Positions 18,985 to 39,911 of a stretch of DNA of 64,000 bases are shown here, in pieces. The number at the start of each line of letters is the position of its first letter. The stretch's first letter is position 1. The position numbers and the translations under genes were made by a program. The DNA is from Oligoflexales bacterium (GTDB lineage: Bacteria > Myxococcota_A > UBA9042 > DTJE01): the NCBI GenBank assembly GCA_012840965.1, contig DUVQ01000103.1, positions 291 to 64,290 on the forward strand. Reading direction: 5' to 3'. A model generated the notes under the pieces. It searched no databases. It was not told where the DNA came from and worked only from the letters and a program-made list of their open reading frames with translations.

Positions 18985-19038
18985 GCAATTTGGCCCTCAA
19001 AAAAACACGTCAGAGTTTGCCTTTATCCGCCCCACCTG

Positions 19039-19953: not shown

Positions 19954-19999
19954 TATTCCAAGGATTAGTATAGCATCGGTCTTTTTATGCGAGTCTGAA

Positions 20000-20941: not shown

Positions 20942-20951
20942 AGGTGTCGTA

Positions 20952-22838
20952 ATGAAAAGATTTTATGTATCAATTATTGTTGCGGCCTTCTTCAGCGTTT
21001 CATGCGCCGACGATGGGGCGTTTGTATCATTTCAAGGGCCGGAAGAATCTGAAAATGGCGTTTTGCAAATCGCTTTGGAAGGCCTAGAGGCTGAGTACTT
21101 CAAGATTCAGCTTTACCCAACCCTACCAACTACACCAGATGTCGAACCCTATTTTGCATCTGAATGCAGTCTGGCTAAACGTGGGTTTGGCTTAAACAGG
21201 CTTAAGACCGGTAAGGATTATGTCCTTGTATTCGAGGCGTTTTCGACTTCTAGCTGTCAGGCTGGTTCCAGAGTTGGCTACGGCGTTAGAGGCGGGATTG
21301 AAGTGTTTCCTGAGGGGGTTGGAAACGCGATCTACTACGTTAACGTGAACCGCTCTGGCGACATAACCCCGCTGCCTGTTCCTGGGCCAAGCTTGAGTGC
21401 GCCTAACCCGCCGATTTCCTGTGTGTCTGATGGTGACTGCCAGGAATTGATCGACTGCCCCGATCCGGCCGAATGTCGCTTTGTGCTGTCGGTTGCATGT
21501 GATAGCGACGAGTACTGTCCGGACGGGACCAAAACGATGCAGTATAAATTGCATCCAGCCGCGACTTGTAACCTGGGATTTTGCAGGCTGACCACTTTGT
21601 TTCCTTTAAATACCCAGACTGAAAGGGTTTTTCACCTGGCGGCTTCTTCCACCGAGGGTGACTTGTCTATCATCGGCGGCCTTGCTTCTTCAGGCATCAG
21701 GTCACTGGTGGCCAAATCGGGCACTTTTGACAAGCCTGACCTTGAGTCATTTTCCGCAAACACTGGTTTGTTCTCGCATCTCCAGTTTGATCGAGACCTA
21801 GGCAATTCCTTGGCTCTGTCCAGCACCACCATGGTTGGAGATAACCTGCTGATGATAGTGGGTGGAACGTCTGCTATCTCGGCCGACTTAGTTGGTGAAA
21901 GCATTGTCCCTTGGCCTTGGGCCAGCAAGTGCACACATACAGAATGCCAACTGTCTGAAAAAATGTGGCTGGTTGATTTGGATGCAGGCACGGCCAGCCA
22001 ATCGGAGCTTCCATTACCAATAGCCACAGGTCAGGTTGTACAAATCCCCAGCGTAGATGGCAAACCCAGGGTATTCATCAGATCCGGGCTGGTTCAATCG
22101 CTGGTTCAAAACGAGCTGCGTCCCGGTCGCGAGGCCTGGATATGCTCCATTGCCGACGACATGACCACGGATTGCACCCCTGTTGCAGAAACCAGCCAAC
22201 GTTCTGGTAGATACATGGCTACAGGCGTTTGTCTGACCGAAAATGACGACGGCACCTGCAGCGATTACCTGGTTCTTGGGGGTAACTCTGAAGGAACTTC
22301 GTTTGCGGAAGTTTTCTCGATTACTGAAGAAGGCCCTGTGATTTATCCATTGGTACCCTTAGAGGGCGTTCCAGACACCTTGTTTGGTGCCACGGCGGTT
22401 AACCTGAATGGTCAAATTTTGGTTATTGGTGGCGGCTCGGTGCACAGAAACGCAGACTCTGCTTTGCTGGTTTTCGACGTCAACCTTACCAATCGCACCA
22501 TTGCCGGCAGAGCAGTCTCTTTATCTGACAACCAGGAAAGCCAGCTTGAGCGGATTTTCCACACCGTTACTCCATTGGCTGGCGGCTGGGATCTGCTGGT
22601 CACCGGTGGTCTCAACGCCGACCTTAAGCCAACCAGATCTGCAACCCTCATCAGGGTTACCGAAGAAGGCATCTCCATTCTTAAGCAGTGGGAAGGGCTT
22701 GCTGTTCCTCGCGCTGGCCACACCGCTACAAGGCTTCGAGGTGGGCTGCTAAATGGTGGGATCGTCATTACAGGAGGCCTAAACTCACTGCTTGGCTCTC
22801 CTTCCTTCGCCGAGGGTGCTGAATTTTACCTGCCCTAA
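20952..22838 (+). CDS. Lipoprotein with Cys-rich module and Kelch/galactose-oxidase-like propeller
   Basis: Lipobox FSVSC; R.FH...IIGG, LVLGG, LVIGG, RIFHTVT..LLVTGG, PRAGHTATRL..VITGG. Confidence 0.75.
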   Translation: MKRFYVSIIVAAFFSVSCADDGAFVSFQGPEESENGVLQIALEGLEAEYFKIQLYPTLPTTPDVEPYFASECSLAKRGFGLNRLKTGKDYVLVFEAFSTSSCQAGSRVGYGVRGGIEVFPEGVGNAIYYVNVNRSGDITPLPVPGPSLSAPNPPISCVSDGDCQELIDCPDPAECRFVLSVACDSDEYCPDGTKTMQYKLHPAATCNLGFCRLTTLFPLNTQTERVFHLAASSTEGDLSIIGGLASSGIRSLVAKSGTFDKPDLESFSANTGLFSHLQFDRDLGNSLALSSTTMVGDNLLMIVGGTSAISADLVGESIVPWPWASKCTHTECQLSEKMWLVDLDAGTASQSELPLPIATGQVVQIPSVDGKPRVFIRSGLVQSLVQNELRPGREAWICSIADDMTTDCTPVAETSQRSGRYMATGVCLTENDDGTCSDYLVLGGNSEGTSFAEVFSITEEGPVIYPLVPLEGVPDTLFGATAVNLNGQILVIGGGSVHRNADSALLVFDVNLTNRTIAGRAVSLSDNQESQLERIFHTVTPLAGGWDLLVTGGLNADLKPTRSATLIRVTEEGISILKQWEGLAVPRAGHTATRLRGGLLNGGIVITGGLNSLLGSPSFAEGAEFYLP

Positions 22839-22844
22839 GGCTGC

Positions 22845-24848
22845 TTGCATTTCGCAACGATAAACACCTGGTGGATGTCAGTGAAAGGGCTACAAAGGCT
22901 CAAGGCGTTATTGGCGACTGAAAGTCACGATGTTACGGCCTGGGCTTTGGCGGTGTTCGCCATATCGGCGTTTGTGCTGTTGATCCTTAGTGTGCCCGGG
23001 ATTTATGTCAAAGATTCCGGTGAGTTGGTGGCCGCAATCCGAGGCATGGGAGTCCCCCATCCAACCGGTTTTTCGCTGTATTGCTTGACTGGCAAATTGT
23101 TTGACCTGCTTCCCTTTGGTGCCGGCGCATTTCGAGCCAACGCTTTTTCGGCTGTCAGCGCAGCAGGGGCCGCTACTCTGGCGTTTTTGTTGACCGTCGA
23201 ACTGGCTCGCATCCTTGGCATCAGGCCCAATTTGGTCGCGGCGCTTGTTTCCCCAATCGCTTTGATTGCCAGCCACTTGTTTTGGCAACACGCTACAACA
23301 ACCGAGGTCTACGCCTTTTCCCTTGCAGGCATGTTGCTTGCTTTTTTGGCTTGGGTTCGGGGCGCTTTTTTGCAAGACGCCAGGTGGCTTGCTGTCGGCG
23401 CTGTGGTTACAGGCCTTGGTGCAGGCGGCCATCTGACATGGCCCTTGTATGGAGCGATGGTTGGTTTCTCTGCTCTGATAGTCTATTTACGCAGTACCAA
23501 GCGCTTTAGCTTGGTTCCCATCCTGGTGTTGCTGGCCATTTTGGGAAGCCTGGTCAGTCTTTATCTTTTAGCCGTCGCAAATCGAGGCCCCTACATGAAC
23601 TGGGGAAGTCCTGCTGATCTAAAGGGTTTCCTTGCTCATTTGACCGGGTCTAGGATTCGTACATCGTTTCAAGACGAGCTTTCAGGCGTACCTTTGGGCC
23701 TTGTCTGGATAAACTTCAAACGCTCAGTTTTGACCCTTTCAGATGGAGCAATCGCCATCATTCCGGCCGCTTTGGCGGGTCTGGTGTTGCTGTTTATCAA
23801 ACGTCCATTTCTTGCTGTTGTCGCCTTTTGCCTACTATTGGCGGACCTGCTCTTTTCCGCTCGCATAAATCCTATGGGAATCGTTGATTGGCAGACCTTG
23901 CTGCCGTCCGCATCCTACTTGGCAATTTTAGCAGGGGTGGCAACTGTGGTGTTGTGGGACTACAAGTGGGGCAAAGTGCTTGTTTTTGCATCGATAGCTG
24001 CCGCTTTGGCCCAGTTCAGCGTTTCACCAATCGAACGCAGGATGGATCGGGTAACTGCTGCATCAGACATCGTTTGGGACTTTTTGGACGCTTTACCACC
24101 GTCTGCCACAGTATTTACCAGCAGCGACAACCTATCTTCCAGTTTGGCTGGCATCCAACTGGTTGAAACTGCAAGGCCAGACGTTTTGGTATTGGTCAAG
24201 CAGCACATGTCAGATGCCAAGTACACGGCGGCTCGCTTGGATCAGCATGGAGGGGCAAGCAATCGTGGGCGTCTGGTCGGTTCGTTTAAGGGCCAAGCCT
24301 TTGAAAGTGCATCGGAAACGCCTCAGGATGCAGTCATCAGGGCGTTGGCTGCGTCAAGTCAAGACGGTGCAGTGTGGTTTGAACTAGGGGAAGGCATGGT
24401 TGATCGCGCTGTCATGCCCAATCTGAAGCCAGATTTTCCTGCATTCAGGTACGTGGAAAGGCAGTCTAGCGACCAAGCTGATGAGGTGGCAGAAAGGGCC
24501 ATCGTCCACATTGAAAATGCCGACAGATGGGCTGCAGGCTGGTCTTCCAACTTCCTGACGCAACTTGGGATATGGGCTGTCTTCAAGAACAACAACGCTC
24601 AAGCGGCGCGTTACACGGCAATGGCCATCAAAGCAGAACCTGGAAACGCCAAGGCGCTGAACAACATGGCTGTAATTTTAAGGGCTGAAGGTGACTTTGA
24701 GAACGCGATCAAGTTCGCAAACCTGGCAGTCAAGGCAGATTCCTCCTATCAAAGAGGGTGGAAAACCTTGGCGAACACCGCGCAGATGGCTGGTGACAGT
24801 GAAACGTTTGAAAAAGCCCAACATGCGTTAAAGAGTTTTGAGCGCTGA
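22845..24848 (+). CDS. DUF2723/TMEM260-like GT-C membrane glycosyltransferase with C-terminal TPR
   Basis: DSGELVAA..GVPHPTGFSLY, EVYAF, many TM segments, YMNWG.P; TPR-like ALNNMAVIL. Confidence 0.8.
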   Translation: MHFATINTWWMSVKGLQRLKALLATESHDVTAWALAVFAISAFVLLILSVPGIYVKDSGELVAAIRGMGVPHPTGFSLYCLTGKLFDLLPFGAGAFRANAFSAVSAAGAATLAFLLTVELARILGIRPNLVAALVSPIALIASHLFWQHATTTEVYAFSLAGMLLAFLAWVRGAFLQDARWLAVGAVVTGLGAGGHLTWPLYGAMVGFSALIVYLRSTKRFSLVPILVLLAILGSLVSLYLLAVANRGPYMNWGSPADLKGFLAHLTGSRIRTSFQDELSGVPLGLVWINFKRSVLTLSDGAIAIIPAALAGLVLLFIKRPFLAVVAFCLLLADLLFSARINPMGIVDWQTLLPSASYLAILAGVATVVLWDYKWGKVLVFASIAAALAQFSVSPIERRMDRVTAASDIVWDFLDALPPSATVFTSSDNLSSSLAGIQLVETARPDVLVLVKQHMSDAKYTAARLDQHGGASNRGRLVGSFKGQAFESASETPQDAVIRALAASSQDGAVWFELGEGMVDRAVMPNLKPDFPAFRYVERQSSDQADEVAERAIVHIENADRWAAGWSSNFLTQLGIWAVFKNNNAQAARYTAMAIKAEPGNAKALNNMAVILRAEGDFENAIKFANLAVKADSSYQRGWKTLANTAQMAGDSETFEKAQHALKSFER

Positions 24849-24851
24849 TGT

Positions 24852-25940
24852 TTACTGTGTGCTGACCGGGGTCAGGTTTAGATACTCGCCAACGGCTTTT
24901 GCAACGATTTCATAGCCTTTTGATGACAGATGCTCTTCTTGCAAATACTGCGCTTCAAAGTCCTGCCAGCCATGGGTTTTAAGAACTTGTCGAAATTGCG
25001 GAAAAAGATCAATGCATTCCAGTTGATTCTGATTGCAGGTTTGTAAAAGCAATTCGTATTGTTTTTGGCCCCTGAGCCCCATGTCTTGTGTGGGATCCAA
25101 CTCAAATCGCCAGGGCATCAAAACGAAGATAGGTCGAGCGTTTTGCTTTTGTGCCTCACGTCTCATTTCTAATATCAACCACTCTCCAAGTTCGGCGATT
25201 GTTTCATCTGTTTCTGACGGTGAAGGGCGCAGCGAAATGTCTAGCAGCAACTTGGGAAGCGCAATTATCAACGGCAATTGGCGCTTTAAACGCTGCTGTC
25301 TTGTTGGTACCGGGCTGCCGGTAAGCGTCCATTTTTCATCGACCTTTTTAAACACCGGTTTGGCCCCTGAAAAGTGCCTAGTCGTTAATCGATCAAGGTC
25401 GTGAGTTATCAGGCCAACCAAGAGAACATCCGGACTGAATCTTTTCATCATTGTTTTGGCCTTAAGATAGACTTGGTCCAAGCCATATCCAGGAGTGCCA
25501 GCGTTTAACACCTCTACATTGTTGAAGCTTTTTTCCAGGTGCGCAGTGATGGTGCCCTAGTCGTCCGCACCAATCCCAAACATCATGGAATCTCCAACTG
25601 CCAGAATGCGAAGATTGGTGGGGTCTTTTGTCAAAGAACGTTCGCGTTCACTTCTAAGCCCATTGGAATCAGTTGAAATCATGCGTTGTTTGTTATCGAA
25701 ATTTTTGAAGTTGGGCTTTACATCGAAGCCAAGGTCAGGGTTGTGAATCAAGTATCTGGGCGAATCGACAGGCCCGTAAAGTGATGCGAATTCACAAAAC
25801 TCCCCGTAGGGCGCACAACCATGGAATCTAAAGAACTTCAAAAAGACCCAAGTGCCAGCTCGTGCCCCAAGCTCCACAAGCACCAAAATGGCCAGGATGG
25901 TGCCAAAAAACCTCAAGAATTTGTTGCTTTTTATGCTCAA
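24852..25940 (-). pseudogene. SGNH/GDSL hydrolase-family gene interrupted by an in-frame TAG (25557-25559)
   Basis: The two ORF-track pieces are in one frame: ...VGDSMMFGIGADD*GTITAHLEKSFNNVEVLNAGTPGYGLDQ...EEHLS.KGY. All SGNH blocks are otherwise present. Confidence 0.8.
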
Positions 25941-26098
25941 AACAACACCTCATCGTGAACCATGACCGCCACTAACATACATCGGTCTGGCAAAATGTAC
26001 CAACAGCTAGCTCCAACGTTTCCTTTTATCATCTGATTTTGGGGCAACGGCGCTCTTTTTTGATATACTGCCGCGCCTTTTCGGTACGGGGAGTTACC

Positions 26099-27418
26099 AT
26101 GAAGCCCACTGTGGCGCTGGTTGGGCGCCCAAACGTTGGAAAATCCACTCTGTTTAACAGGATTCTTGGTCGCAAAGCGGCAATTGTTGAAGATCTGCCT
26201 GGAGTTACCAGGGACCGCAACTATGCCGAAACAGACCATGCTGGTCGCGCCTTTGTAGTGGTCGACACCGGCGGATTTGAGCCTGATTCGGACGATGAGA
26301 TGCTGGTTCTGATGGCCAGCCAAGTGGAAATCGCGTTGGCCGAGGCGGACGCGATAGTCCTGGTCATGGATGGCAGGGCTGGCCTGACCGACGTTGACAA
26401 GGACATCTTTGAAAAGATCAGGCGAGCAGGCAGGCGGGTGTATTTGGCGGTCAACAAGATAGACTCTCCAAGCCTGATGCCTTTGCTTGCTGATTTTTAC
26501 ACCCTTGGTGCCGAGCATGTCTTTCCCATCACCGCCGAGGGTGGCAGCGGGGTCGCTGAACTACTGGAACAGATCCTTGAAGACACAGACGCTCCCCCAA
26601 TAACGCCCCCAGAGGCGGACGAAGGCTTGGGGCCTTGCCGCCTGACGATAGTTGGGCGCCCCAACGTAGGCAAATCCACGCTTTCCAACGCCATAATCGG
26701 CTACGAGCGCTTCTTGACCAGCGACGTCGCCGGCACCACCCGCGACTCGATTGACTCGTCCTTCACCGCCAACGGTCGCCAGTACATCTTGGTCGACACC
26801 GCCGGGGTCAGGCGCCGAAAGCGCGTAGAATCCGGCGTCGAGCGAATGAGCGTCGGCCGAGCCATGCAGGCCATAGACCGCGCCCACGTTGTGGCCCTTG
26901 TCTTTGATGCAACAGAAGGTTTGACCGACCAAGACAAAAAGCTGGCCTCTCTAATAACGGACCGAGGCCGCGGCCTGGTATTAGTAGCAAACAAATGGGA
27001 TTTAATGGCCGGAAAAGAATCAGCTGAGGCCTTCACCAAGCGGATTCGCAACGAAGCCTCGTTTTTGAGCTTTGCGCCCCTAATCCTGTTGTCAGCAAAA
27101 ACCGGCAAATCCACCCAACGCGTCCTACCCACCGTAGACAGAGTCTACACAAACCTATTTCGCAGGATAACCACCTCGGAACTAAACCGTTTTTACGAAC
27201 AGGTAATCCAAACTCATCCCCCCCACACCACCGGCACCAAAACAGTCCGAATCAAGTACCTGATGCAGGTCGATGTCAACCCCCCTGTAATCTTGCTCTA
27301 TCGCGGCGGCACGGGCTTGATACCCGACTCGTACCTGCGGTTCCTGACCAGAGAGATCCGCAAGCGCTGGGACTACGAAGGCGTGTCGCTGGTCCTGGCC
27401 CCTAAAGGGGCACGGTAG
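26099..27418 (+). CDS. der: Ribosome biogenesis GTPase Der/EngA
   Basis: Two GTPase domains (GRPNVGKST twice, DTGG/DTAG, NKID/NKWD) plus KH-like C-terminus. Start ATG 26099. Confidence 0.97.
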   Translation: MKPTVALVGRPNVGKSTLFNRILGRKAAIVEDLPGVTRDRNYAETDHAGRAFVVVDTGGFEPDSDDEMLVLMASQVEIALAEADAIVLVMDGRAGLTDVDKDIFEKIRRAGRRVYLAVNKIDSPSLMPLLADFYTLGAEHVFPITAEGGSGVAELLEQILEDTDAPPITPPEADEGLGPCRLTIVGRPNVGKSTLSNAIIGYERFLTSDVAGTTRDSIDSSFTANGRQYILVDTAGVRRRKRVESGVERMSVGRAMQAIDRAHVVALVFDATEGLTDQDKKLASLITDRGRGLVLVANKWDLMAGKESAEAFTKRIRNEASFLSFAPLILLSAKTGKSTQRVLPTVDRVYTNLFRRITTSELNRFYEQVIQTHPPHTTGTKTVRIKYLMQVDVNPPVILLYRGGTGLIPDSYLRFLTREIRKRWDYEGVSLVLAPKGAR

Positions 27419-27424
27419 TGCGCG

Positions 27425-27476
27425 GTAGGGCGGGGGCAGGGGGGGCGGAGCAGGGACGGGGCGGGGCTAGGGTCAG
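27425..27476. repeat. G-rich degenerate hexamer tract (GGGCAG/GGACGG/GGTCAG)
   Basis: ggtagggcgggggcagggggggcggagcagggacggggcggggctagggtcag directly after the der stop. Confidence 0.7.
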
Positions 27477-27547
27477 CATCTGGGACCACAGTGGTGGGTG
27501 AAATTGGTGCTTGCTTTGGGGTTTATAGTGTGCGATAAATCCGGGTC

Positions 27548-29419
27548 ATGAGAAAGCTAATTTCACAACTTTGTCTCTGGTTTGCCCTTTGCCTGGTCGG
27601 GTTGTTACCGGCTGCTAACACCAAAGCTCAATCCTCGGAGATTATCGCTGTCTTCGAGATTGAAAGGCGGGGAGTTCCTTTAAAAGCAGCCACGATGGCG
27701 AATCTAAACGACTACATGTATGGTCGTTTGGCATTTGCTGGTTTCAAACTCACCCCCCAAAGTCAAGTTCGAGAGCGCGTTGTCAGTCTCAAACGTGAGT
27801 CCCGCAAAGACTGTTATGACCAATCCTGCCAAATCGAACTTGGCAAGGCTGTATCCGCCCACAAATCATTATCCAGCCGGCTGATTAAAATTGGCGATGT
27901 GTGCTCGTTACAATCACAGATATACGACCTCAAAACAGAAACCACCGAAATGGGGGCCGAGGCGAAAGGCCCCTGCACTGAAAAGGGTATAGCGGCCTCC
28001 ATCGACCAAGTCGTTGCCATATTCAAAGGCGGCGTTGTAGCGCCAGCACAGCCAGTTCAAGATTTGGACAAAGGCGGTGGTTCAGCCAAGATCACCAGCT
28101 CGCCGTCTGGAGCCGAAGTGTGGCTCAACGATGAATTCATAGGCATAACACCCCATATAATCCCTGAAAAGCCGTCCGGTACCTACAAATTACGCCTTGA
28201 ATTACCCGACTATGTCTCCAACGAAGCGACTTTGGTGATCAAGAAGGGTAAAGAGACCATACATCACCGAGAATTGGCCTCTAATTGGGGAAAAATCAGC
28301 ATTTCAAGCTCCCCCACCGGCGCCACGGTTTATCTGGACGATGTACTGGTGCCAAATCTAACAACTCCCTGTGTTTTGGACCGCGTCGCTCCCGGAGTAC
28401 ACGTCGTCAAGTTTTTCCTTGCCGGCCACAGCGAGGGCACAGCAAGGACAAGCGTCATTCGCGGCAAGACAGCGTCAGTAGCAGCAAAACTAGAACCAAT
28501 GTGCGGTCGTTTGGTAGTGTCGTCCAGCTACGGCGGCGGCAGTAAGTGCGAAGGCAATCTAAAGATCGACGGCCAAATTGTAGGCCGCACTCCCTGGCAA
28601 GGAGACGTCTCAGCCGGCTCCCACACAGTCGAGGTACAGTGCCAAAACGGCAAGGCCAGCCAACAGGTTACAGTCGCGCACAATGGTCGTTCAGAGCTGA
28701 ACATTTTGATTGAAACCTGTCCTGGTGACTGGTGTTTGATTCCCGGTGGTAGTTCTAATATGGGGTCTAATGATGGCGATGATGACGAAAAGCCAGTTCA
28801 TCGAGTAACTGTACGAACGTTTGAAATGACAAAGACTCAGGTGACGGTCGAGCAGTACAAAGCTTGTGTTGATGCTGGTGTCTGCACAGCTCCTGATACT
28901 GGGGATTATTGTAACTGGGGCCAATCTGATCGTGGCAAGCATCCTATAAACTGCGTTGATTGGCACCAAGCTCAAGCCTATGCTAAGTGGGCTGGTGGTC
29001 GTTTACCCACAGAGGCAGAATGGGAGTACGCAGCCCGCAGTGGTGGTCGTGATTGGAAGTATCCTTGGGGCAATGAAAATGCTACTTGTGAGCGTGCTGT
29101 AATGTACGATGGTGATTTGGGTTGCGGCCGTGAAAGTACCTGGCCAGTTTGCAGCAAGCCGAGAGGCAACACTACTCACGGCTTGTGCGATATGGCAGGC
29201 AATGTTTGGGAGTGGGTTCAGGATTGGTACCATGACAGTTACAAAGGTGCACCAACTGATGGCTCAGCTTGGGAAAAGCCGACAGGCTCTAGCCGGGTTG
29301 ATCGCGGCGGTTCCTGGGGCAACGGCGCCGGGAGCGTGCGGGCGGCGATTCGCAACCACGCCTCGCCCGGCTACCGCCACGACACCCTCGGGTTTCGCCT
29401 TGCCAGAGATTCGCTGTAG
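27548..29419 (+). CDS. Secreted PEGA x2 + FGE-sulfatase (SUMF1/CLec-fold) protein, paralog 1
   Basis: Signal peptide; two PEGA domains (SSPSGAEVWLND, SSPTGATVYLDD); MGS..E.P.H.V, GRLPTEAEWEYAAR, DMAGNVWEWVQDWY, RGGSW...GFRLAR. Confidence 0.92.
   Translation: MRKLISQLCLWFALCLVGLLPAANTKAQSSEIIAVFEIERRGVPLKAATMANLNDYMYGRLAFAGFKLTPQSQVRERVVSLKRESRKDCYDQSCQIELGKAVSAHKSLSSRLIKIGDVCSLQSQIYDLKTETTEMGAEAKGPCTEKGIAASIDQVVAIFKGGVVAPAQPVQDLDKGGGSAKITSSPSGAEVWLNDEFIGITPHIIPEKPSGTYKLRLELPDYVSNEATLVIKKGKETIHHRELASNWGKISISSSPTGATVYLDDVLVPNLTTPCVLDRVAPGVHVVKFFLAGHSEGTARTSVIRGKTASVAAKLEPMCGRLVVSSSYGGGSKCEGNLKIDGQIVGRTPWQGDVSAGSHTVEVQCQNGKASQQVTVAHNGRSELNILIETCPGDWCLIPGGSSNMGSNDGDDDEKPVHRVTVRTFEMTKTQVTVEQYKACVDAGVCTAPDTGDYCNWGQSDRGKHPINCVDWHQAQAYAKWAGGRLPTEAEWEYAARSGGRDWKYPWGNENATCERAVMYDGDLGCGRESTWPVCSKPRGNTTHGLCDMAGNVWEWVQDWYHDSYKGAPTDGSAWEKPTGSSRVDRGGSWGNGAGSVRAAIRNHASPGYRHDTLGFRLARDSL
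29294..29407 (+). other. Candidate DGR variable region (VR)
   Basis: Abrupt shift to GC-rich codons. All 11 codons at positions where DGR templates carry AAC end in C, and they differ from AAC only at the A positions. Confidence 0.6.
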
Positions 29420-30130
29420 AACGGTAAAGAGTTGGGAATGAAAGAGTCCTACGATGAAGGTTTAGCGAGCCACATCGGCCCCGAGTCATGCGGGTATGAT
29501 GGTAACGTCATATTCGAAGCGTTGACAGGGGGAAATGCAGGCAGGGTATTGAGCCTCGAAATGGGCGGAATAGTTCTGAGCGCCGACGTACTCCGCGCAT
29601 ACGGAAGGCAACACTGGATACACCGCAAACGCGAGGTGTAACCGGGCTCGGCGGGGTCCTAGACCCCTTGCATGCATGGAAACTCTTTACACGGGATGCA
29701 GGAGGTCCCGGTCTTTGTCCACCGAGAGATTGCGCGGTGGACGGCACGGAAAACCCGTAAGGGGTACAGCCGTGAGGTACGAGACCGGGAAGTCGGACAG
29801 TTTCATAGTACCGGAGAATCACATGAACAAAGCAGCAACAGCATTGGAGGGAGCACAACGGGGGGAAGGACTTAGCCGGACATCCGCAGTTCCTGAACCG
29901 ACGTCAAAGGCTGTGGCGGAGTGTGAGGAGGGAAGGGAACTGGCCAAGGGGAATCCGGTAGGGCAATACAGGGACTGGACACAGAGCCGGTTCACCCTGC
30001 AAAGAGCGCTCGACTGGATACGGCAGGCCGCAAGTCTGCGCGTCTGACCCAAGGCAGGAGCCCGGTGCGGTAGTTCCGCACGCCGGGATCTGTGCGGGGG
30101 GTGGCCCGTAAGGGCCATTCCTACCGCGAC
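29408..30130 (+). mobile_element. ORF-less (RT-deleted) group II intron, IIB-like, 723 nt
   Basis: Domain V GAGCCCGGTGCGGTAGTTCCGCACGCCGGGATC at 30058 (AGC triad, AC bulge); domain VI ending CCTACCGCGAC with bulged A at -8; domain I-type blocks (GAAGGTTTAGCGAGCCACATCGGCCCCGAGTCATGCG, GGGAAGTCGGAC..ATAGTACC); only the N-terminal stub of the intron ORF remains (..GKSDSFIVPE..ELAKGN..TQSR..ALDWIRQAA-SLRV*). The 5' boundary is inferred. Confidence 0.88.
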
Positions 30131-30153
30131 TCGGTGCGCTAGATCCTTGGTCT

Positions 30154-30210
30154 GCGCCCCTGTTGGCCAGGCGACAGCGCAGCGTAGGCGCCAATGGCCA
30201 ACAGGGGCGC
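30154..30210. other. Long GC-rich stem-loop just downstream of the intron / reconstituted stop codon
   Basis: Perfect 16-bp inverted repeat GCGCCCCTGTTGGCCA (30154-30169) / TGGCCAACAGGGGCGC (30195-30210), with further GGCG/CGCC pairing inside the loop. Confidence 0.8.
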
Positions 30211-30405
30211 CCGGAGTTGCGCGTCAGCAGCTTGAGGTCGGATTTTTTTGCCTCCCCCCCATCACCATTGCGAAACCGCGTGTTTGAGAAAACAGTTCCG
30301 AGATTCTTGTTTCGACGGGCACAGGAGCAGCGCCAGCGCGGGTTTCCCTGTTGACGTTTGAGGGGGGTTATGGTAGCCAATTGCTGTCTGTGATTGGGGT
30401 ATGCC

Positions 30406-31350
30406 GTGAAGCGTGTTTTTGAGTTTGTCCTGTTTCTGGTTGCTGTTTTCTATTCTGGCTCGGTTTTTAGTCAGGCTGCCGCTGTTGACATTGAATGGGT
30501 GCGGATTCCAGGTGGTAGTTTTATAATGGGCTCCAGTGGCAAGGACGCTGAAGAAGACGAAACTCCCGCTCATAAAGTAAACGTCCCAGAATTTGAAATG
30601 AGCAAAACTCTAGTAACCCTTGATCAGTATAAGGCCTGCGTCGATGCAGGTGTGTGCGAGACCCCGGATACTGAAGAAGGCTGTAATTGGGGAAAATCAG
30701 ATCGCGGAAACCATCCCATAAATTGCGTCGACTGGGAGCAAGCTCAAGCCTTTGCCACTTGGGCTGGAGGTCGTTTGCCCAGCGAGGCTGAATGGGAGTA
30801 TGCGGCTCGAAGCGCCACCCGTGGCTGGAAGCATCCTTGGGGGAATAAACGAGCAAATTGTTCGCTGGCCGTAATGACGGAATCAAGTAAACGACAAGGC
30901 TGTGGCAATGACGGCACTTGGCCTGTTTGCAGCAAGCCAAAAGGCAACACAGCTCAAGGGTTATGCGATATGGCCGGCAATGTAATGGAGTGGGTCCGGG
31001 ATTGGTATTACTACGGCTACAAAGGTGCCCCAAAGGATGGTTCAGCCAGGGAGGTAAAGGGAAGCCCATACAAGGTTTGTCGCGGCGGCTTCTGGGGTGG
31101 CCACGCCAGGAACATGCAAGCAGCTGTTCGTGTATACTACCCACCAGAGTTTCGCGAAAACTTCATAGGCTTCCGCATCGCTAGACCTGTGCCAGCCAAA
31201 CATCCCGAGCCTAGAGATAAATTGGACGGCGATCTTGGACCGGACAGCGATGTTAGCCCGGACAGCAATGTTAGACCTGTGCCACCTAGTCCCCAGGATT
31301 TTGCCCCTAAAAACCAATCCAAGAAAATGTTTGAAACTTTCATAAAATGA
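30406..31350 (+). CDS. Secreted FGE-sulfatase (SUMF1/CLec-fold) protein, paralog 2
   Basis: GTG start by alignment with paralog 3 (VKRVFEFV / MKRVFQFV); GRLPSEAEWEYAAR, DMAGNVMEW, RGGFW..GFRIAR; Pro/Asp-rich tail. Confidence 0.9.
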   Translation: MKRVFEFVLFLVAVFYSGSVFSQAAAVDIEWVRIPGGSFIMGSSGKDAEEDETPAHKVNVPEFEMSKTLVTLDQYKACVDAGVCETPDTEEGCNWGKSDRGNHPINCVDWEQAQAFATWAGGRLPSEAEWEYAARSATRGWKHPWGNKRANCSLAVMTESSKRQGCGNDGTWPVCSKPKGNTAQGLCDMAGNVMEWVRDWYYYGYKGAPKDGSAREVKGSPYKVCRGGFWGGHARNMQAAVRVYYPPEFRENFIGFRIARPVPAKHPEPRDKLDGDLGPDSDVSPDSNVRPVPPSPQDFAPKNQSKKMFETFIK

Positions 31351-31369
31351 AAGTATCCTACATTTTATG
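31331..31369 (+). promoter_or_regulatory. Putative sigma70 promoter and inverted-repeat operator of the AbiE operon
   Basis: TTGAAA-17-TATCCT ending 8 nt before the ATG; interlocked IRs ACTTTCAT/ATGAAAGT and CATAAAATG/CATTTTATG, the latter covering the start codon. Confidence 0.6.
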
Positions 31370-32017
31370 CAGACGCTTACCGAAAAAATCCTGCAAGCCG
31401 ACCTTGGAAAGAGGGTCATTTTTCATAATCAGGTTGCAAGACTCGTAACCGGCTCTGACCAGCGGCGTTATAACTTGGTCAATCGCGCCCTCAACAGCGG
31501 TGAGCTGGTGTGGCTGCGGCGCGGGCTGTACATGCTTTCACCGAAAATCACCGGTTTCACGCCGCACCGGTTTGTGATTGCACAAGCTATTGTCCCAGGC
31601 TCCTTTGTAAGTATGGAAACAGCCCTTTCATGGCATGGATTAATCCCAGAACAAGTTCATTCAGTCCTATCAATGGTTCCCGGGCCTCGCTTGTTGGAAG
31701 TTGACCACGACCTGGTCGGACATTTTCAATTCCTACCAAGCGCCTTGGTCAAAGGCCAGTTTTTACAGATGGTTGACAGGCACCAATTCGGCCCTCAATT
31801 TGCCCTCGTCGCATCCCCAATCAGGGCAGTAACAGACATTATCTACATCAAAAAGCTACAACCACAGGATATGGAGCATTTATTCGACTTTTTGCGCATC
31901 GACCGCCATGATTTTCCAAAAATCTCGAAAGCAACCTGGAACATCTTGGCCAACACCTACCAACACTCAAGAATGGTCAAATGCATAAGAGCCCTACAAC
32001 TGGAGCTGCAGCCATGA
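31367..32017 (+). CDS. abiEi: Type IV TA AbiEi-family antitoxin
   Basis: wHTH-like N-terminus (LVWLRRGLY), PGSFVSMETALSWHGLIPE, ASPIRAVTD.IY; ATGA overlap with the toxin gene. Confidence 0.85.
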   Translation: MQTLTEKILQADLGKRVIFHNQVARLVTGSDQRRYNLVNRALNSGELVWLRRGLYMLSPKITGFTPHRFVIAQAIVPGSFVSMETALSWHGLIPEQVHSVLSMVPGPRLLEVDHDLVGHFQFLPSALVKGQFLQMVDRHQFGPQFALVASPIRAVTDIIYIKKLQPQDMEHLFDFLRIDRHDFPKISKATWNILANTYQHSRMVKCIRALQLELQP

Positions 32018-32877
32018 TTAACTTAATTAGACAAAAGCTAGAAAGTTATAAAGTTACCGATATTGAAACCGAAAAACAGGCGCTAAAGGAAATCCTGCAG
32101 TCAATCACTTTGTACGCACTATGGCGGGTGGATTTCTTTGAAATTGCCGCATTTCAAGGAGACACCAGTCTGCGCATCTTGCATGCACTGCCCAGGTTTT
32201 CAGAAGACCTGGATTTTATAACGAAAACTCCTGATCCAACATTTACATGGGAAGCCTACTCTCAAAATTTGCTGGATGTTTTGGCCGAATATAACGTTGC
32301 ATGCCAATTTGTTCACAGGCCAAACGATACAAGACCAGTGAAAGAGGCCTTCATCAAAGACGATTCAATTACCAGCCAGCTTGAGTTTAGCTTCATGGAT
32401 ACTGGGCGGCGTGGCCTTTTAAAGGTGAAGTTAGAGGTAGACACAAATCCTCCAATTGGTTCAAACTGGGATTACCGATTTTTGGATTTTCCGTTGGATT
32501 TCGAAGTCTGCACACAGGATTTATCATCCAACTTTGCACTCAAGCTACATGCACTACTATGCCGGCCCTATGTAAAGGGGCGCGACTGGTTCGACTTTGG
32601 CTGGTACTGCAGGTTTCAGGTCAAGCCAAACATGGTTTTACTGGAAAACGCCATCAACCAATATGGACCATGGAAGAACAAAGATGAAAAAATCAATGAA
32701 GTTTGGCTGTTAAACAAGCTGGCAGAACGAATCAGAGCAATCAATTGGAATGAAGCAGTTTTGGACGTCACCCCCTTTGTAGCACCCATCGAACGCCCCA
32801 GTCTAAAGCTATGGAGCCAGGGTTTCTTTTTGGAAAAGCTGGCAACACTGGAACAGACCCTGGAGTCGCCAAGGTGA
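32014..32877 (+). CDS. abiEii: Type IV TA AbiEii nucleotidyltransferase toxin (GG motif altered to GD)
   Basis: AFQGDTSLRILHALPRFSEDLDF, KVKLEVDTNPP, FALKLHALLCR, KGRDWFD. Confidence 0.9.
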   Translation: MINLIRQKLESYKVTDIETEKQALKEILQSITLYALWRVDFFEIAAFQGDTSLRILHALPRFSEDLDFITKTPDPTFTWEAYSQNLLDVLAEYNVACQFVHRPNDTRPVKEAFIKDDSITSQLEFSFMDTGRRGLLKVKLEVDTNPPIGSNWDYRFLDFPLDFEVCTQDLSSNFALKLHALLCRPYVKGRDWFDFGWYCRFQVKPNMVLLENAINQYGPWKNKDEKINEVWLLNKLAERIRAINWNEAVLDVTPFVAPIERPSLKLWSQGFFLEKLATLEQTLESPR

Positions 32878-32904
32878 CGGCCAGCCGGTTGTGAGCTAAT
32901 GTGG

Positions 32905-33000
32905 GGGCAGGAACAGGTACAGGACCAGGGGCAGGGACAGGATCAGGGACAGGATCAGGATCAGGGACAGAACCAGGACCAGGATCAGGCACAAGAACCG
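32905..33000. repeat. Tandem array of 16 degenerate GNNCAG hexamers
   Basis: gggcag gaacag gtacag gaccag gggcag ggacag gatcag ggacag gatcag gatcag ggacag aaccag gaccag gatcag gcacaa gaaccg. Confidence 0.9.
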
Positions 33001-33097
33001 CACAAGCCTCAAGAACTAGGCGGGGCCGGCCGTTTCTGTGTTGACGGCCCATGGTGGTTGTGATAACCAACTCTTTGTCCTCAATTGGGACCATGCA

Positions 33098-33871
33098 ATG
33101 AAGCGCGTTTTCCAGTTTGTCATTCTCGGACTCGTCCTCTCCCTATCTAGTCCCGTCCTCAGCCAGTCCAAGCCCGTCGACATTCAGTGGGTCAGGATTC
33201 CTGGCGGCAGCTTCATCATGGGCTCCACCGATAATGTCGCTGACGCCGACGAAAAAGCCGTCCATCCAGTAAAGGTACCAACCTTTGAAATCAGTAAAAC
33301 CGAGGTCACCGTCAATCAATACATGGCCTGTGTCGTCGCCGGTGCCTGCACCGCGCCCAACACCGGAGATGACTGCAATTGGGGCAAGTCCGGCCGCGGA
33401 AATCACCCCATCAATTGCGTCGATTGGCAGCAGGCTCAAGTATTCGCAAACTGGGCTGGAGGCCGCTTACCCACCGAAGCTGAATGGGAGTACGCAGCTC
33501 GCAGCGGCGGTCGTGACTGGAAATACCCCTGGGGCAATGAAGAAGCAACGTGCGCCCTCGCTGTAAAAGGCGGTTGTGGCCACACCAGCACAACCCCAGT
33601 TTGCGGCCTGGAAGAAGGCAACACCTCCCAAGGCTTGTGTGACATGGCCGGCAACGTCTGGGAGTGGGTCCAGGATTGGTATCACGACAGCTACAAAGAC
33701 GCCCCCAACGATGGCTCTGCCTGGGTATCACCCCCAGGCACTCACCGGGTTGTACGCGGTGGCGCTTACCGCCTAGGCGCCCAATTTGTACGCTCGGCCA
33801 AACGCGGCATCAGCTTGCCCAGCACCCGCGACGACGATTTAGGCTTCCGCCTCGCCAAATCCGTGCGCTAG
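33098..33871 (+). CDS. Secreted FGE-sulfatase (SUMF1/CLec-fold) protein, paralog 3
   Basis: Signal peptide; GRLPTEAEWEYAARSGGRDWKYPWG, DMAGNVWEWVQDWY, RGG...GFRLAKSVR*. Confidence 0.92.
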   Translation: MKRVFQFVILGLVLSLSSPVLSQSKPVDIQWVRIPGGSFIMGSTDNVADADEKAVHPVKVPTFEISKTEVTVNQYMACVVAGACTAPNTGDDCNWGKSGRGNHPINCVDWQQAQVFANWAGGRLPTEAEWEYAARSGGRDWKYPWGNEEATCALAVKGGCGHTSTTPVCGLEEGNTSQGLCDMAGNVWEWVQDWYHDSYKDAPNDGSAWVSPPGTHRVVRGGAYRLGAQFVRSAKRGISLPSTRDDDLGFRLAKSVR

Positions 33872-34487: not shown

Positions 34488-34578
34488 GGAGAGATGACCG
34501 AGCTGGCCGAAGGTGCACGACTGGAAATCGTGTGCAGGTTTACCCCTGCCGGGGGTTCGAATCCCCCTCTCTCCGCCA
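34488..34578 (+). tRNA. tRNA-Ser(GGA)
   Basis: GGAGAGA/TCTCTCC acceptor stem, anticodon loop CT-GGA-AA, long variable arm, GGTTCGAATCC, encoded CCA. Confidence 0.97.
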
Positions 34579-34593: not shown

Positions 34594-34683
34594 GGAGAGC
34601 TGGCCGAGAGGTCGAAGGCAGCTGACTCGAAATCAGCCGTGGGTGTATGCTCACCGGGGGTTCGAATCCCTCGCTCTCCGCCA
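34594..34683 (+). tRNA. tRNA-Ser(CGA)
   Basis: GGAGAGC/GCTCTCC acceptor stem, anticodon loop CT-CGA-AA, long variable arm, GGTTCGAATCC, encoded CCA. Confidence 0.97.
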
Positions 34684-34793: not shown

Positions 34794-35651
34794 ATGAAAA
34801 GAAATGTCGTTGTGGCCGGCACATTTTATGAGTCAGACCCGAAGAAGCTGAAGAAATACTTAAAAAACCTACTTTCCACATCCTCTTTGACGCTTGATGA
34901 GCACGAAAAAGAACCGCTTGCCGTCATGGTTCCACACGCAGGTTACAGTTTTTGTGGCAAGGTACTGTCCGACATTTATCAAGGCATTAAAGTCCCCAAT
35001 CGCGTGATTATTTTGGCCCCAAACCACACTGGACTTGGACAGGCTGTGTCTGTATCGCCGGCCGCATGTTTTGAGACTCCCATTGGGAATATTAAAAATG
35101 ATAAAGAAATTGGGAGGTTATTGGTTGAAACAGGCCCCTTTGTTTGGGACGAACTAGCCCACCTTCAGGAGCATGCCATCGAGGTGCACCTGCCGCTGCT
35201 TTTGACAAAAAATCCAAAGGTTAAAGTCACAGCCGTTTGTCTGCGGACCAACGGTTTCCAGGCATGCGAGGAAATGGGTAACAAGCTTGCTGCTGTACTG
35301 GCGTCGATTTCCGAGCCTGTGTTATTGATTGCCAGCTCTGATATGAACCACCATGAACCCTGTAACGTGGCGCTGCGCAAGGATAGAATGGCGCTTGACA
35401 GGATTTCAGATATTGACCCAAGGGGGTTATTCACCGCCGTTGTTGAACACAACGTCTCCATGTGCGGTCTGGTCCCAATGGTGGTCGTCCTTGTGGCCGC
35501 AAAGGCTCAAGGCGCCAAGCACGCTAGGGTGGTCTCCTACTGCACAAGCGGCGATCACAACGGCGACATGTCCAGCGTAGTAGGCTATGCCGGGGTTATC
35601 GTATCAAAAGGAGCACAGGACGGAGACAGACCCAAGCTTGTTTCGATGTAG
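34794..35651 (+). CDS. AmmeMemoRadiSam protein B (MEMO1 family), stand-alone
   Basis: VAGTFY, PHAGYSFCG, APNHTG, EHAIEVHLP, ASSDMNH, SMCG, Y.TSGD..VVGYA. Confidence 0.92.
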   Translation: MKRNVVVAGTFYESDPKKLKKYLKNLLSTSSLTLDEHEKEPLAVMVPHAGYSFCGKVLSDIYQGIKVPNRVIILAPNHTGLGQAVSVSPAACFETPIGNIKNDKEIGRLLVETGPFVWDELAHLQEHAIEVHLPLLLTKNPKVKVTAVCLRTNGFQACEEMGNKLAAVLASISEPVLLIASSDMNHHEPCNVALRKDRMALDRISDIDPRGLFTAVVEHNVSMCGLVPMVVVLVAAKAQGAKHARVVSYCTSGDHNGDMSSVVGYAGVIVSKGAQDGDRPKLVSM

Positions 35652-35693
35652 GCCCAGGGGCAGGCTCAGGGACAGGCTCAGGGACGGGGACAG
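35652..35693. repeat. Seven GNNCAG-type hexamers
   Basis: gcccag gggcag gctcag ggacag gctcag ggacgg ggacag. Confidence 0.85.
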
Positions 35694-35764
35694 GTCGCTA
35701 CCTGAGCATCCGTTAACCACGGTGCTTTTGCCCTCCATGCTGTAATGTGTGCTTTCGGTATCAT
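35678..35764 (-). pseudogene. Truncated AbiEii toxin remnant (first ~22 codons only)
   Basis: ATGA overlap with the antitoxin stop; MIPKAHITAWRAKAPWLTDAQV is the typical N-terminus of this AbiEii subfamily, then runs into the hexamer tract and stops (ATCPRP*). Confidence 0.75.
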
Positions 35765-36543
35765 TCGTCTGGCTCCAGGTCGGTGTTGATGATCAGCTTC
35801 CACTTTGTGTTGCGCTTAGCCTTCGCTATTGGCGCAGCACGCCGTAGAGGCGTGTAGCTTCTTGCTTGTTCTTGTACGAAAGGATTGAGGGCCGCGGCCA
35901 AGTCCTCGTGGCCGACCAGCCCTAGAATGTAGCCAAGCCGCTGCGACCAACTGATGGGCGAGAGCCTTGCGACCTCAAGCAGCTTCACCACGTCAAGTCC
36001 CTCGGCCAGCTCGTCGATGATTGTGGCCACGTTGCCCAGTCCACCGGCGTGGTTCGGGTAGCCAACGAGCTCAAGCGCAGTCACTTCAGGAGTAGCGTAA
36101 TGTAAAACACCGCGAGGCGTGTTAATCGTGGTAACAGGCATACTCTCCAGATCGCCACGAGCGATGAAGCCGACTTGCACCTTACCACACGAGATCGCAG
36201 CTCTATTCTTACGCACCATCACCTGACAAAACTGCGGACGCTGGTGCGCCGCCCCGTGTCGCTCAGCTGCAGACAGCAACCCCAGATAATAAGGTTCACC
36301 CCAAGCGTTCATGAGTTGGTCGATAAAATGCTCAGCCGGCAGACAGCCTAGTCTCCGGTACTCGGGCGGCACGATCACGTGGAAACTGCGTACAGGCTCT
36401 GCAATGAACCCTTGCGCCTTCAGCCGGCGCAGCTGGCCTCGCACAGCAGCCTGGCTACCACCAAGTGCCTCGAATGCCTCCGCAGAACTGAAGTGGCAGC
36501 GTCCGTTCGAGGCCAACTCATCTATGTACGCTCGGGCACTCAT
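35761..36543 (-). CDS. abiEi: Type IV TA AbiEi-family antitoxin (now orphan)
   Basis: F.S.EA..LRRLKAQG.I..P..F.VIVPPEY, YYLGLLSAAE.HGAAHQRPQ, ATPE.TALELV, QRLGYIL, KWKLIIN. Start ATG 36543 (alternative 36573). Confidence 0.85.
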   Translation of the reverse strand: MSARAYIDELASNGRCHFSSAEAFEALGGSQAAVRGQLRRLKAQGFIAEPVRSFHVIVPPEYRRLGCLPAEHFIDQLMNAWGEPYYLGLLSAAERHGAAHQRPQFCQVMVRKNRAAISCGKVQVGFIARGDLESMPVTTINTPRGVLHYATPEVTALELVGYPNHAGGLGNVATIIDELAEGLDVVKLLEVARLSPISWSQRLGYILGLVGHEDLAAALNPFVQEQARSYTPLRRAAPIAKAKRNTKWKLIINTDLEPDE

Positions 36544-36583
36544 GTGCACATCTTCCAGAAAACACGGCGTCAAGAATTGACTT

Positions 36584-39579: not shown

Positions 39580-39666
39580 GGGCTGGGACTGGGACAGGTG
39601 TGGGGGCGGGGTCAGGGTGAAGGGTGAAGAGAACAGGGACAGGGACGGGGGCAGGGACAGGATCAG
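39580..39666. repeat. G-rich hexamer tract left of dispersed element B
   Basis: gggctg ggactg ggacag ... ggacag ggacgg gggcag ggacag gatcag. Confidence 0.8.
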
Positions 39667-39732
39667 GGGGATGATTGTGCTGATCTGCAGGATTTGGAGC
39701 TAAAAGGACGTCGAGAGGGCACCCTGCAACAT

Positions 39733-39836
39733 GGTCCGAAAGGATGCCCCCGGACATGTTTTTAAACTGCAACGAAGAGATAAAACGCAAAAAAGAACAA
39801 ACAATCGTAAGCCTGAACATGCAACTTGGCAGGATC
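39733..39836 (-). repeat. 104-nt dispersed non-coding element, copy B
   Basis: Reverse complement aligns without gaps with 4294-4397 (89/104 identical). Confidence 0.85.
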
Positions 39837-39843
39837 TGTAGTT

Positions 39844-39911
39844 GGGCAGGGGCGGGGGCAGGCCCAGGATCAGGCTCAGAGCCGGGGCCAGGCAAACGGG
39901 GACAAGAACAG
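39844..39911. repeat. G-rich hexamer tract right of dispersed element B
   Basis: gggcag gggcgg gggcag gcccag gatcag gctcag agccgg ggccag. Confidence 0.8.

Follow-up and report, generated by a model that had tools for sequence, protein, structure and literature searches.

An ORF-less group II intron at the 3′ end of a diversity-generating retroelement variable region in an uncultured Myxococcota lineage

The interrupted target gene and its intron

The locus described here lies in a window of 64,000 nucleotides from an Oligoflexales bacterium (GenBank assembly GCA_012840965.1, contig DUVQ01000103.1, positions 291 to 64,290), and all coordinates without further designation are those of this window. 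It contains a gene with PEGA and FGE-sulfatase domains, which is a target of a diversity-generating retroelement (DGR) and which is interrupted close to its stop codon by a group II intron without an intact open reading frame (ORF). The identity of the intron, its boundaries and its DGR context are close to certain. The window copy of the intron, or of its host allele, is denoted W, and the loci or contigs compared with it carry L numbers. The features of the locus, including the DGR variable region (VR), the initiation-of-mutagenic-homing (IMH) element, the exon-binding and intron-binding sites (EBS and IBS) and the remains of the intron-encoded protein (IEP) with its reverse transcriptase (RT), are as follows.

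27548-29407, forward strand: exon 1 of the host gene (gene1), a DGR target with PEGA and FGE-sulfatase (C-type-lectin-fold) domains (Pfam FGE-sulfatase 1e-59, PEGA 2.5e-26)
29281-29407, forward strand: DGR VR up to the intron, a fixed allele mismatched to the resident template repeat (TR), from a codon-by-codon alignment to TR-A (L046, from 9018)
29402-29407, forward strand: IBS1 position, GCCAGA, the final 6 nt of the 5′ exon, with 3/6 pairs to EBS1
29408-30130, forward strand: ORF-less group II intron, 723 nt, 5′ GAUUCG ... 3′ GCGAC, from empty-site alleles, Rfam and the alignment of relatives
29443-29666, forward strand: ribozyme segment of domains I to IV (D1-D4), RF02005 (group-II-D1D4-6), 196.1 bits, E = 1e-57, gathering score 49
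29591-29599, forward strand: EBS1 loop CUCCGCGCA, with the EBS1 6-mer CCGCGC at 29593-29598
29823-30047, forward strand: IEP ORF remnant of 74 codons, ATG at 29823 behind GGAG, limited to the N-terminal region, the RT, X and remaining parts being deleted
30056-30130, forward strand: domains V and VI (D5/D6), RF00029, 37 bits, bulged branch-point A in CCUACCGC, terminal AC
30131-30142, forward strand: exon 2, TCG GTG CGC TAG (SVR*), the 3′ tip of the IMH and the stop codon, the same as the post-junction sequence of intron-free alleles and other targets
30154-30210, no strand assigned: GC-rich inverted repeat of the hairpin/cruciform type with 16-bp arms, DNA fold -28.9 kcal/mol, z = -4.8

The ribozyme is recognized from its first to its last domain. 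The match to RF02005 spans the full length of the model with only 3 non-canonical pairs. The RF00029 score is slightly below the gathering score of 40 (E = 2e-5 in a 1.2-kb search), and the terminal AY of this model maps to 30129-30130. The D5/D6 fold is typical, with the bulged A present and z = -4.2 against shuffled sequences, and the sequence agrees with the class consensus of the IEP-encoding relatives, including a class-specific G-A opposite the catalytic triad.

The inserted block is exactly 29408-30130 (723 nt), because two intron-free alleles provide a precise empty site. The empty site reads ...GCGAGG/TCGGTGCGCTAG in L010 and ...GCACGG/TCGGTGCCCTAG in L009, and the window reads ...GCCAGA/29408-30130/TCGGTGCGCTAG. 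L009 represents this locus in the same species, as 11.8 kb of it is 99.3% identical to window 17542-29400. The 5′ end is independently confirmed by the alignment of full-length relatives from proteobacterial plasmids, which begin GTGCGCCGGGAGACCGG at the column where the window begins GATTCGCTGTAGAACGG; the 5′ ends at that column are GTGCGCC or GAGCGCC in the relatives and GATTCGC in the window, which thus departs from GUGYG. Of the consensus termini, the 3′ AC is present, and the 5′ GUGYG is replaced by GAUUCG in W and by GAUGCG in L054. Non-GUGYG ends (GAGCG and apparently AAGCG) occur in Desulfobacterota relatives as well, including full-length ones, and the subgroup appears to tolerate 5′ variation, since its members show GUGCG, GAGCG and apparently AAGCG. 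Two other placements of the intron were rejected. A boundary shifted by 1 base (GCGAG/CTCG, TR-like) is inconsistent with the empty sites and disrupts the terminal AY. For the GTGCG at 29336 as the 5′ splice site, both the GFRLAR protein homology and the empty sites continue to 29407.

A Burkholderia relative encodes a 510-aa ltrA product, to whose residues 17-67 the ORF remnant can be aligned (BLASTP, 40% identity, E = 2e-4); the remnant shares with it the motif TQSR...L..(I/V)RQAA, stops after the aligned part and contains no Pfam domain. Because the remnant covers the N-terminus only, and the 25 nt preceding D5 are homologous to the pre-D5 sequence of the relatives, about 1.25 kb has been lost from the IEP ORF. 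No full-length homolog of the remnant was found in 5.8 billion proteins, and the 6 short proteins returned are all remnants. RVT_1 had no match in the window, either in ORFs of at least 150 aa (shadow ORFs overlapping longer ones excluded) or in the precomputed Pfam calls.

The host ORF (27548-29419) runs three codons into the intron and ends ...GFRLARDSL*. Its 90%-identity protein cluster holds 11 sequences, 9 of which end in ...ARDSL, while P0008 ends in ...ARSVR and P0010 in ...ARSVP. The residues of these two proteins are very different at positions typical of a DGR variable region, and their contigs are the intron-free alleles. Neither a TR (a repeat search and low-stringency BLAST of the VR gave only paralogous FGE genes) nor an RT was found in the 64-kb window, the latter among the scanned ORFs. 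A TR was inferred from the positions variable across six VR alleles, and a scan for it in the metagenome collection gave 14 loci with the canonical cassette, in which an FGE-type target is followed by genes for an HRDC protein, bAvd and a 333-aa RT and finally by the TR. The same VR/TR pattern had 0 matches in the genome-contig collection, from which the species is evidently absent, and 0 in viral contigs. The RT cluster includes a protein on the 3,204,074-bp contig JBMNKS010000001.1 (GCA_050952305.1, labelled Myxococcota), where the cassette (HRDC, bAvd, RVT_1, TR) lies at 295741-312742 (L046) and the intron-bearing W allele at 848352-870076 (L011), about 550 kb from the RT and TR. Because the two share a contig, gene1 is a remote target of this DGR.

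The position of the intron relative to the DGR signals follows from the comparison of TR and VR. The TR reads ...CTT GGG TTC CGC CTC GCG AGC TCG CGG CCT, and intact VRs read ...CTT GGG TTC CGC CTC GCG AGG/TCG GTG CGC TAG. The homology between TR (...CGCCTCGCGAGCTCGCGG) and VR (...CGCCTCGCGAGG/TCGGTG) stops 3 nt past the insertion point, at TCG; therefore, the intron lies inside the IMH and parts it from the downstream hairpin. The G/C difference at position -1 between the TR and intact VRs is the usual kind of mismatch between IMH and IMH*. The hairpin is conserved after the intron-free VRs in L009, L010, L014b and L046, at 22-57 nt from the VR in intact targets. In the window, the IMH and the inverted repeat are both present, and the intron places a further 723 nt between them. 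The spacer between stop codon and hairpin consists of CCTTGG-like hexamer repeats whose number differs between alleles: it measures about 11 nt in the window (30143-30153) and about 35 nt in intron-free targets (L009 11873-11908; L010 2180-2214; L014 3916-3950).

Most of what the earlier note had read from the letters of this stretch agrees with these results. The ORF-less intron at 29408-30130, its intact domains V and VI and the clean deletion of the RT behind an N-terminal stub are borne out, as are the unspliced frame ending ARDSL* (stop at 29419) and the deviant 5′ GATTCG, which is real. Its putative VR is a DGR VR, as the cassette in the same genome and the adenine-restricted differences of the intron-free targets from the TR indicate, and the insertion site it had tentatively placed at the IMH is indeed there. 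The intron-free alleles that it had suggested looking for exist and fix both boundaries. Its comparison with a third paralog holds at the protein level, but not as a reference, for which the intron-free alleles and the TR are the proper choice.

Several observations concern the DGR and its possible targets more widely. A shortened second copy of the TR, comprising its first ~75 nt, occurs at 11023-11110 of L046, 2 kb after the full TR, and likewise in L042 (4766-), L030, L033, L034 and others; it has GGT in place of GGC, as does the W VR. Between the full and the truncated TR lies an opposite-strand Schlafen/AlbA_2-HATPase gene flanked by TAAATGTCGGGTTAAATGTCGGGTTA repeats, a block with the look of an insertion by which the TR region was duplicated or split. 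Other contigs carry a further, full TR type (TTG CCC GGC). Downstream of the intron, two more FGE-sulfatase paralogs (30394-31350 and 33038-33871) have a VR-equivalent region with host-like codon usage and no downstream hairpin, and they do not look like current DGR targets.

Copies of the intron in other DGR targets

The earlier note had also suggested a search for related introns at VR ends, and such introns were found. At least six other target genes or contexts carry an intron of this lineage at the codon boundary used in the window, with 92-100% identity over the sequence compared. The sibling copies were traced via contigs encoding homologs of the remnant ORF and FGE proteins ending in R/K-DSL or -DAL. 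In L014-L019, the intron (94.9% identical to W) interrupts a 432/452-aa PEGA-FGE gene adjoining RNase HII and L19, and L014 carries a second target 2 kb downstream, with the hairpin and without the intron. The L026 copy is 98.6% identical to W. Others lie in a 356-aa gene (L055/L056), in a 198- or 365-aa gene adjoining an M20 peptidase (L050/L051 and L054) and in L053; L054 belongs to the same metagenome-assembled genome, GCA_018056325.1, as the W allele L013. All placeable copies of the lineage sit at VR ends. The introns are 95-99% identical while the host genes are 82-87% identical, and the sequences point to a spread of the intron more recent than the divergence of the host genes.

The copies differ in their state of preservation. 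L050, L053 and L054 are remnants in which intron nt 1-217 are joined to ~582-645 and in which D5/D6, exon 2 and the hairpin are missing; this loss apparently occurred via GCGCGTCTG microhomology between the intron and the post-hairpin sequence. Two contigs were excluded from all conclusions: L020, an assembly of 0.8x coverage with obvious D5 errors, and L021 (1864-4707), in which the DGR-adjacent 710-aa target gene is joined to a W-type VR, the intron and the window downstream genes. The latter is a genuine recombinant or else a chimera that the assembly created through the conserved FGE domain.

Recognition of the site can be followed through EBS1. In the relatives, the loop homologous to 29591-29599, as read from the alignment, can base-pair with the final 5-6 nt of the 5′ exon (EBS1/exon pairs ACUGU/ACAGU in Burkholderia, UGUCAU/AUGACA in S. 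meliloti and UGACGU/ACGUCA in Microvirga), and for this reason the loop is identified as EBS1. The pairing in the members of the lineage is listed below.

L014: EBS1 CCUCGC, exon end GCGAGG, 6/6 pairs, D5/D6 present
L026: EBS1 CCGUGC, exon end GCACGG, 6/6 pairs, D5/D6 present
W: EBS1 CCGCGC, exon end GCCAGA, 3/6 pairs with a mismatch at the -1 position among others, D5/D6 present
L055: EBS1 CCUCGC, exon end GCGCGG, 5/6 pairs, contig ends before D5
L050/L051: EBS1 CCUCGC, exon end GCGAGA, 5/6 pairs, D5/D6 deleted
L053: EBS1 CCUCGC, exon end GCTAAG, 4/6 pairs, D5/D6 deleted
L054: EBS1 CCUCGC, exon end GCCCGA, 3/6 pairs, D5/D6 deleted

L014 and L026 differ by two compensating changes, with EBS1 tracking IBS1, and the EBS1 of W would fit GCGCGG, the exon end of L055. 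That the earlier note had found no EBS1-IBS1 pairing is thus explained: the EBS1 loop pairs fully in two siblings, but at only 3/6 positions in W. Position -3 of the exon is a TR adenine; therefore, the DGR itself mutates part of the recognition sequence of the intron. Several differences between W and L014 in D1 preserve pairing (e.g., A-U to G-U, U-G to C-G or U-A). The two copies differ at 16/499 positions in the ribozyme parts and at 22/225 in the ORF remnant (Fisher p = 5e-4). Greater conservation of the ribozyme than of the remnant, together with the EBS1-IBS1 covariation, points to selection on the RNA after the loss of the ORF. An EBS2-IBS2 interaction was also considered: the loop GCAAACGCGA can pair with positions -13..-8 of the L014 exon, but it is conserved across relatives with unrelated exons, so the match is treated as a coincidence.

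The window copy appears to be at an intermediate stage of decay, with an intact ribozyme core, a mismatched EBS1-IBS1 pairing and a non-consensus 5′ end, and it is probably becoming a fossil. Splicing of this copy is probably poor or absent, and the host protein would then probably end in ...ARDSL.

Variable regions beside the intron and their explanation

The VR interrupted in W differs from the resident TR-A at 16 adenine sites and at 11 non-adenine positions, and so lacks the adenine-only pattern of a DGR VR. It is base-identical in L001-L006, L011-L013, L020, L021 and L023-L025, with one G>A in L022, an invariance that covers about 15 samples or assemblies. It looks as if written by an older or foreign TR variant. 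Intron-free VRs behave differently. The DGR-adjacent intron-free target has 5 different VRs in 6 contigs encoding an identical RT, and the gene1 intron-free alleles L009 and L010 have different VRs; where the TR type is known, all of these show 0-1 non-adenine mismatches besides the IMH/IMH* G/C position. The requirements of rewriting are known from BPP-1, in which a DGR target must carry an IMH with a hairpin suitably spaced behind it, and homing falls off progressively once spacer insertions exceed 3 bp, with an effect already at 6-15 bp extra (PMC3240598). Because of this dependence, a 723-bp insertion within the IMH can reasonably be expected to abolish rewriting.

The reading preferred here, to which a probability of roughly two in three is assigned, is that of a specialised, non-autonomous intron lineage that blocks the DGR at the targets it invades. 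Its homing site would be the 3′ end of DGR VRs (...GCGAGG/TCGGTGC, the IMH) in FGE-type target genes of an uncultured Myxococcota lineage found in digester and sludge metagenomes. Such a site would stay conserved because the DGR needs it, and several copies of it exist per genome; as it lies three codons before the stop, an insertion costs the host protein only the change from SVR to DSL. The intron RNA would recognise the site through EBS1-IBS1 and spread among the targets, either with the RT of a related intron acting in trans or by recombination between paralogous targets. Insertion would split the IMH and move the hairpin 723 nt away, so that the DGR would no longer rewrite the VR and the allele would be frozen, and the inserted copies would decay later. 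The suggestion of the earlier note that one retroelement switches off the target of another fits the invariant, mismatched W VR beside varying intron-free targets, although the fit is one of correlation; the co-option of an intron-derived RNA, which it had also raised, finds no support.

A wider claim is held only tentatively, at somewhat less than even odds: that this is an undescribed interaction between two kinds of bacterial retroelements, in which the intron lineage homes on the DGR IMH and co-evolves with it (EBS1 tracking the mutable adenine at -3), and in which its insertion reversibly or irreversibly shuts off hypermutation at single targets.

Several observations weigh against the blocking of the DGR by a homing intron, and most of them bear at the same time on an alternative of lesser but real weight, which we consider unlikely. 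It holds that a single old insertion was copied passively as the 3′ ends of paralogous targets were shuffled by recombination or gene conversion, that the intron is inert, and that the VR is frozen as a result of its recombination history and of TR divergence. Over 1.7 kb, W and L009 do not differ, and the last 300 nt then hold 61 differences. The divergence of the gene1 alleles starts at ~29100, about 180 nt upstream of the start of TR homology, and includes synonymous non-adenine changes (window 29100-29285 compared with L009 11553-11738 and L010). The 3′ end of gene1 thus looks like a mosaic of recombination or gene conversion among paralogous FGE targets, and the whole 3′ segment, VR and intron together, may have come from another target. 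The L026 intron looks like a hybrid of the W and L014 types. L050 and L054 share the same remnant and have downstream flanks that are 99.4% identical, while their VRs differ strongly; a VR beside a dead intron can still change, probably via gene conversion. The odd 5′ end and the same ORF deletion are common to all copies, and no trans-acting intron RT was found by the protein-database search with the remnant ORF or in the scanned loci of the genome. With 3/6 EBS1-IBS1 pairs and the GAUUCG end, W may never have reverse-spliced into its present exon. The freezing itself is a correlation, in which the VR-TR mismatches could be the cause and not the consequence of lost rewriting, and the exact-protein look-ups bias the sampling towards identical alleles. 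What passive copying accounts for poorly are the compensating EBS1/IBS1 changes in two complete copies, the stronger conservation of the ribozyme than of the remnant, which with the covariation argues for selection on RNA function after the ORF was lost, and the persistence of ORF-less relatives of the same architecture in distant genomes.

Two further explanations are much less probable than passive copying. The intron could be spliced efficiently and be neutral for both the gene and the DGR, giving an mRNA for ...ARSVR* and a VR that is still diversified, its invariance being due to clonal sampling. Intact D1-D6, a length that is a multiple of three and siblings with perfect EBS1-IBS1 pairing would suit this idea, which is nevertheless improbable given the poor pairing of W at and around the -1 position, its non-consensus 5′ end, the 11 non-adenine mismatches of its VR to the only complete TR seen in its genome, the differences between samples in the intron-free target of the same population, and a distance of 723 nt between IMH and hairpin when 6-15 bp of extra spacer already lower BPP-1 homing (PMC3240598). 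Least probable of all is a domesticated switch, by which the host would gain and precisely lose the intron at the IMH to lock or unlock a useful VR variant. Intron-bearing and intron-free alleles do occur in near-identical backgrounds (99.3% over 11.8 kb) in samples of the same study series, and the intron-bearing allele is the commoner one; still, nothing indicates a regulated gain or loss, and several copies have decayed with the hairpin deleted too, which is the fate of a parasite and not of a maintained switch.

Relatives, neighbouring features and significance

A scan of species-representative genomes with the D5/D6 pattern gave at least 118 loci in Desulfobacterota, Burkholderiales, Gammaproteobacteria and other groups, the nearest among the matches listed being 65-75% identical to the window intron. 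None of the relatives examined lies at a VR end. ORF-less relatives of 636-768 nt (L116, L117, L173, L119, L080, L120) keep the same N-terminal ORF segment in distant genomes, with deletion junctions that are similar but not identical to one another; consequently, loss of the ORF with retention of the start of domain IV recurs in the class and is not peculiar to the lineage of the window. In Ll.LtrB, the start region of domain IV is the IEP binding site, and the recurrent retention of this region fits such a role.

Comparison of the IEP of a relative with PDB structures does not separate class IIC from IIB, since this IEP resembles IIC RTs no more closely than it does a IIB RT. No mapping of the Rfam D1D4 models to bacterial classes was found in the papers that mention these models. 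The 5′ exon of W, on reading its sequence, has no stem-loop, whereas IIC introns insert just downstream of a terminator-like one, and the conserved hairpin lies downstream of the intron. Two relatives show further arrangements. In L166 (~448-540), an intron 3′ end (CCTACCGCGAC) is directly followed by another intron 5′ end (GTGCGCCGG), an arrangement of tandem or nested copies within one intron class. In L029 (2960-2990, a Burkholderia anthina plasmid), a full-length relative stands directly after the palindrome TACTGTATAAATATACAGT upstream of imuA; the palindrome resembles an SOS (LexA) box, and the EBS1 of this intron pairs with its last 5 nt.

Among the closest relatives are the full-length and ORF-less group-II-D1D4-6 introns of Burkholderiales, Hyphomicrobiales and Desulfobacterota (L027-L029, L102, L116, L117 and others). 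They share with the window intron the D1 core, the position of the EBS1 loop, a D5 with a GGGAUC 3′ strand and a 5-nt loop, and a D6 ending in CCUACCGCGAY, and the remnant is homologous to the N-terminus of their IEP. The difference lies in the 5′ end, GAUUCG against their GUGCG, GAGCG or apparently AAGCG, at the 65-75% identity given above. Several intron lineages are specialised for particular sites: IIC introns insert after terminator stem-loops, IIC-attC introns in integron attC sites, RmInt1 in ISRm2011-2, and others in the ORFs of other introns. As in these lineages, the site used here is a conserved, multi-copy, low-cost site of another genetic element. The target, however, is a DGR IMH, its associated stem-loop is downstream of the intron and not upstream as for IIC, and the insertion, unlike that of IIC, IIC-attC or RmInt1 introns, is expected to disable the activity of the host element at that target. 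The targeting of stem-loops by IIC introns is mentioned in a study of BPP-1 (PMC3240598).

Group II introns without an ORF have been described in bacteria and are regarded as rare; as a rule they occur alongside a related intron that encodes an IEP (PMC4424553, PMC12350094), and they usually depend on that IEP in trans (PMC4424553). The present lineage resembles the ORF-less introns of Thermosynechococcus and archaea in its length of ~600-750 nt, in the retention of the ribozyme domains with the IEP reduced to ORF remnants, and in the presence of several related copies per genome or lineage (PMC4424553). It differs in that the remnant-based protein search found no related IEP for it, and in that all placed copies occupy one functional site of another retroelement, whereas the introns described before lie in housekeeping genes, insertion sequence elements and other introns. 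The DGR, for its part, is like that of BPP-1 in having a VR at the 3′ end of a C-type-lectin-fold gene, variation at TR adenines only, and an inverted repeat behind the GC-rich point where homology ends (PMC3240598). In contrast to BPP-1, ~550 kb separate this target from the RT and TR, an HRDC protein belongs to the accessory set, a large loop instead of a GRNA tetraloop closes the 16-bp arms of the hairpin, and an intron interrupts the IMH. No paper describing a group II intron in a DGR VR or IMH was found in a literature search that reached few subscription journals. By RNA architecture, this is a true group II intron, non-autonomous and with a new target specificity, which probably has a consequence for the host retroelement.

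The remaining features of the window concern its neighbouring genes. An AbiEii toxin gene (31981-32877) follows a 216-aa ORF, a possible antitoxin (together 31367-32877), and a separate AbiEi_1 antitoxin-domain gene lies on the opposite strand (35761-36573, reverse). Tandem tRNA-Ser genes with anticodons GGA and CGA (34488-34578 and 34594-34683) stand after a tadA-like deaminase gene. From the hairpin onward, the window has no counterpart in the available downstream sequence of L009, which runs into unrelated DNA. G-rich imperfect hexamer or 12-mer repeats (GGGACAGGGGCAGG...) recur between genes, often just after them, in the window (32899-33009, 35634-35690, 39580-39900) and elsewhere (L046 after target 1, L009 12080-12110, L050 5945-5990).

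The arrangement has a practical side, since DGR-finding software will misannotate such targets if it expects VR, IMH and stop codon to be contiguous, and gene callers annotate the intron as small hypothetical ORFs. For group II introns, it adds a new kind of homing site, with EBS1-IBS1 covariation at a position that the host element mutates, and it indicates that introns lacking an ORF, and apparently not autonomous, persist in this class and appear in it repeatedly, though ORF-less introns are considered rare in bacteria (PMC4424553). For the host, intron-bearing and intron-free alleles in near-identical backgrounds allow a direct comparison of the two states. To our knowledge, DGRs are the only natural system of targeted protein hypermutation known in bacteria, and we are aware of little understanding of what limits diversification at a given DGR target. 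The insertion of another retroelement into the IMH offers a concrete natural mechanism by which a target may be uncoupled from its DGR and, if the proposed interaction is true, the intron would be a natural off-switch or a parasite of targeted protein diversification.

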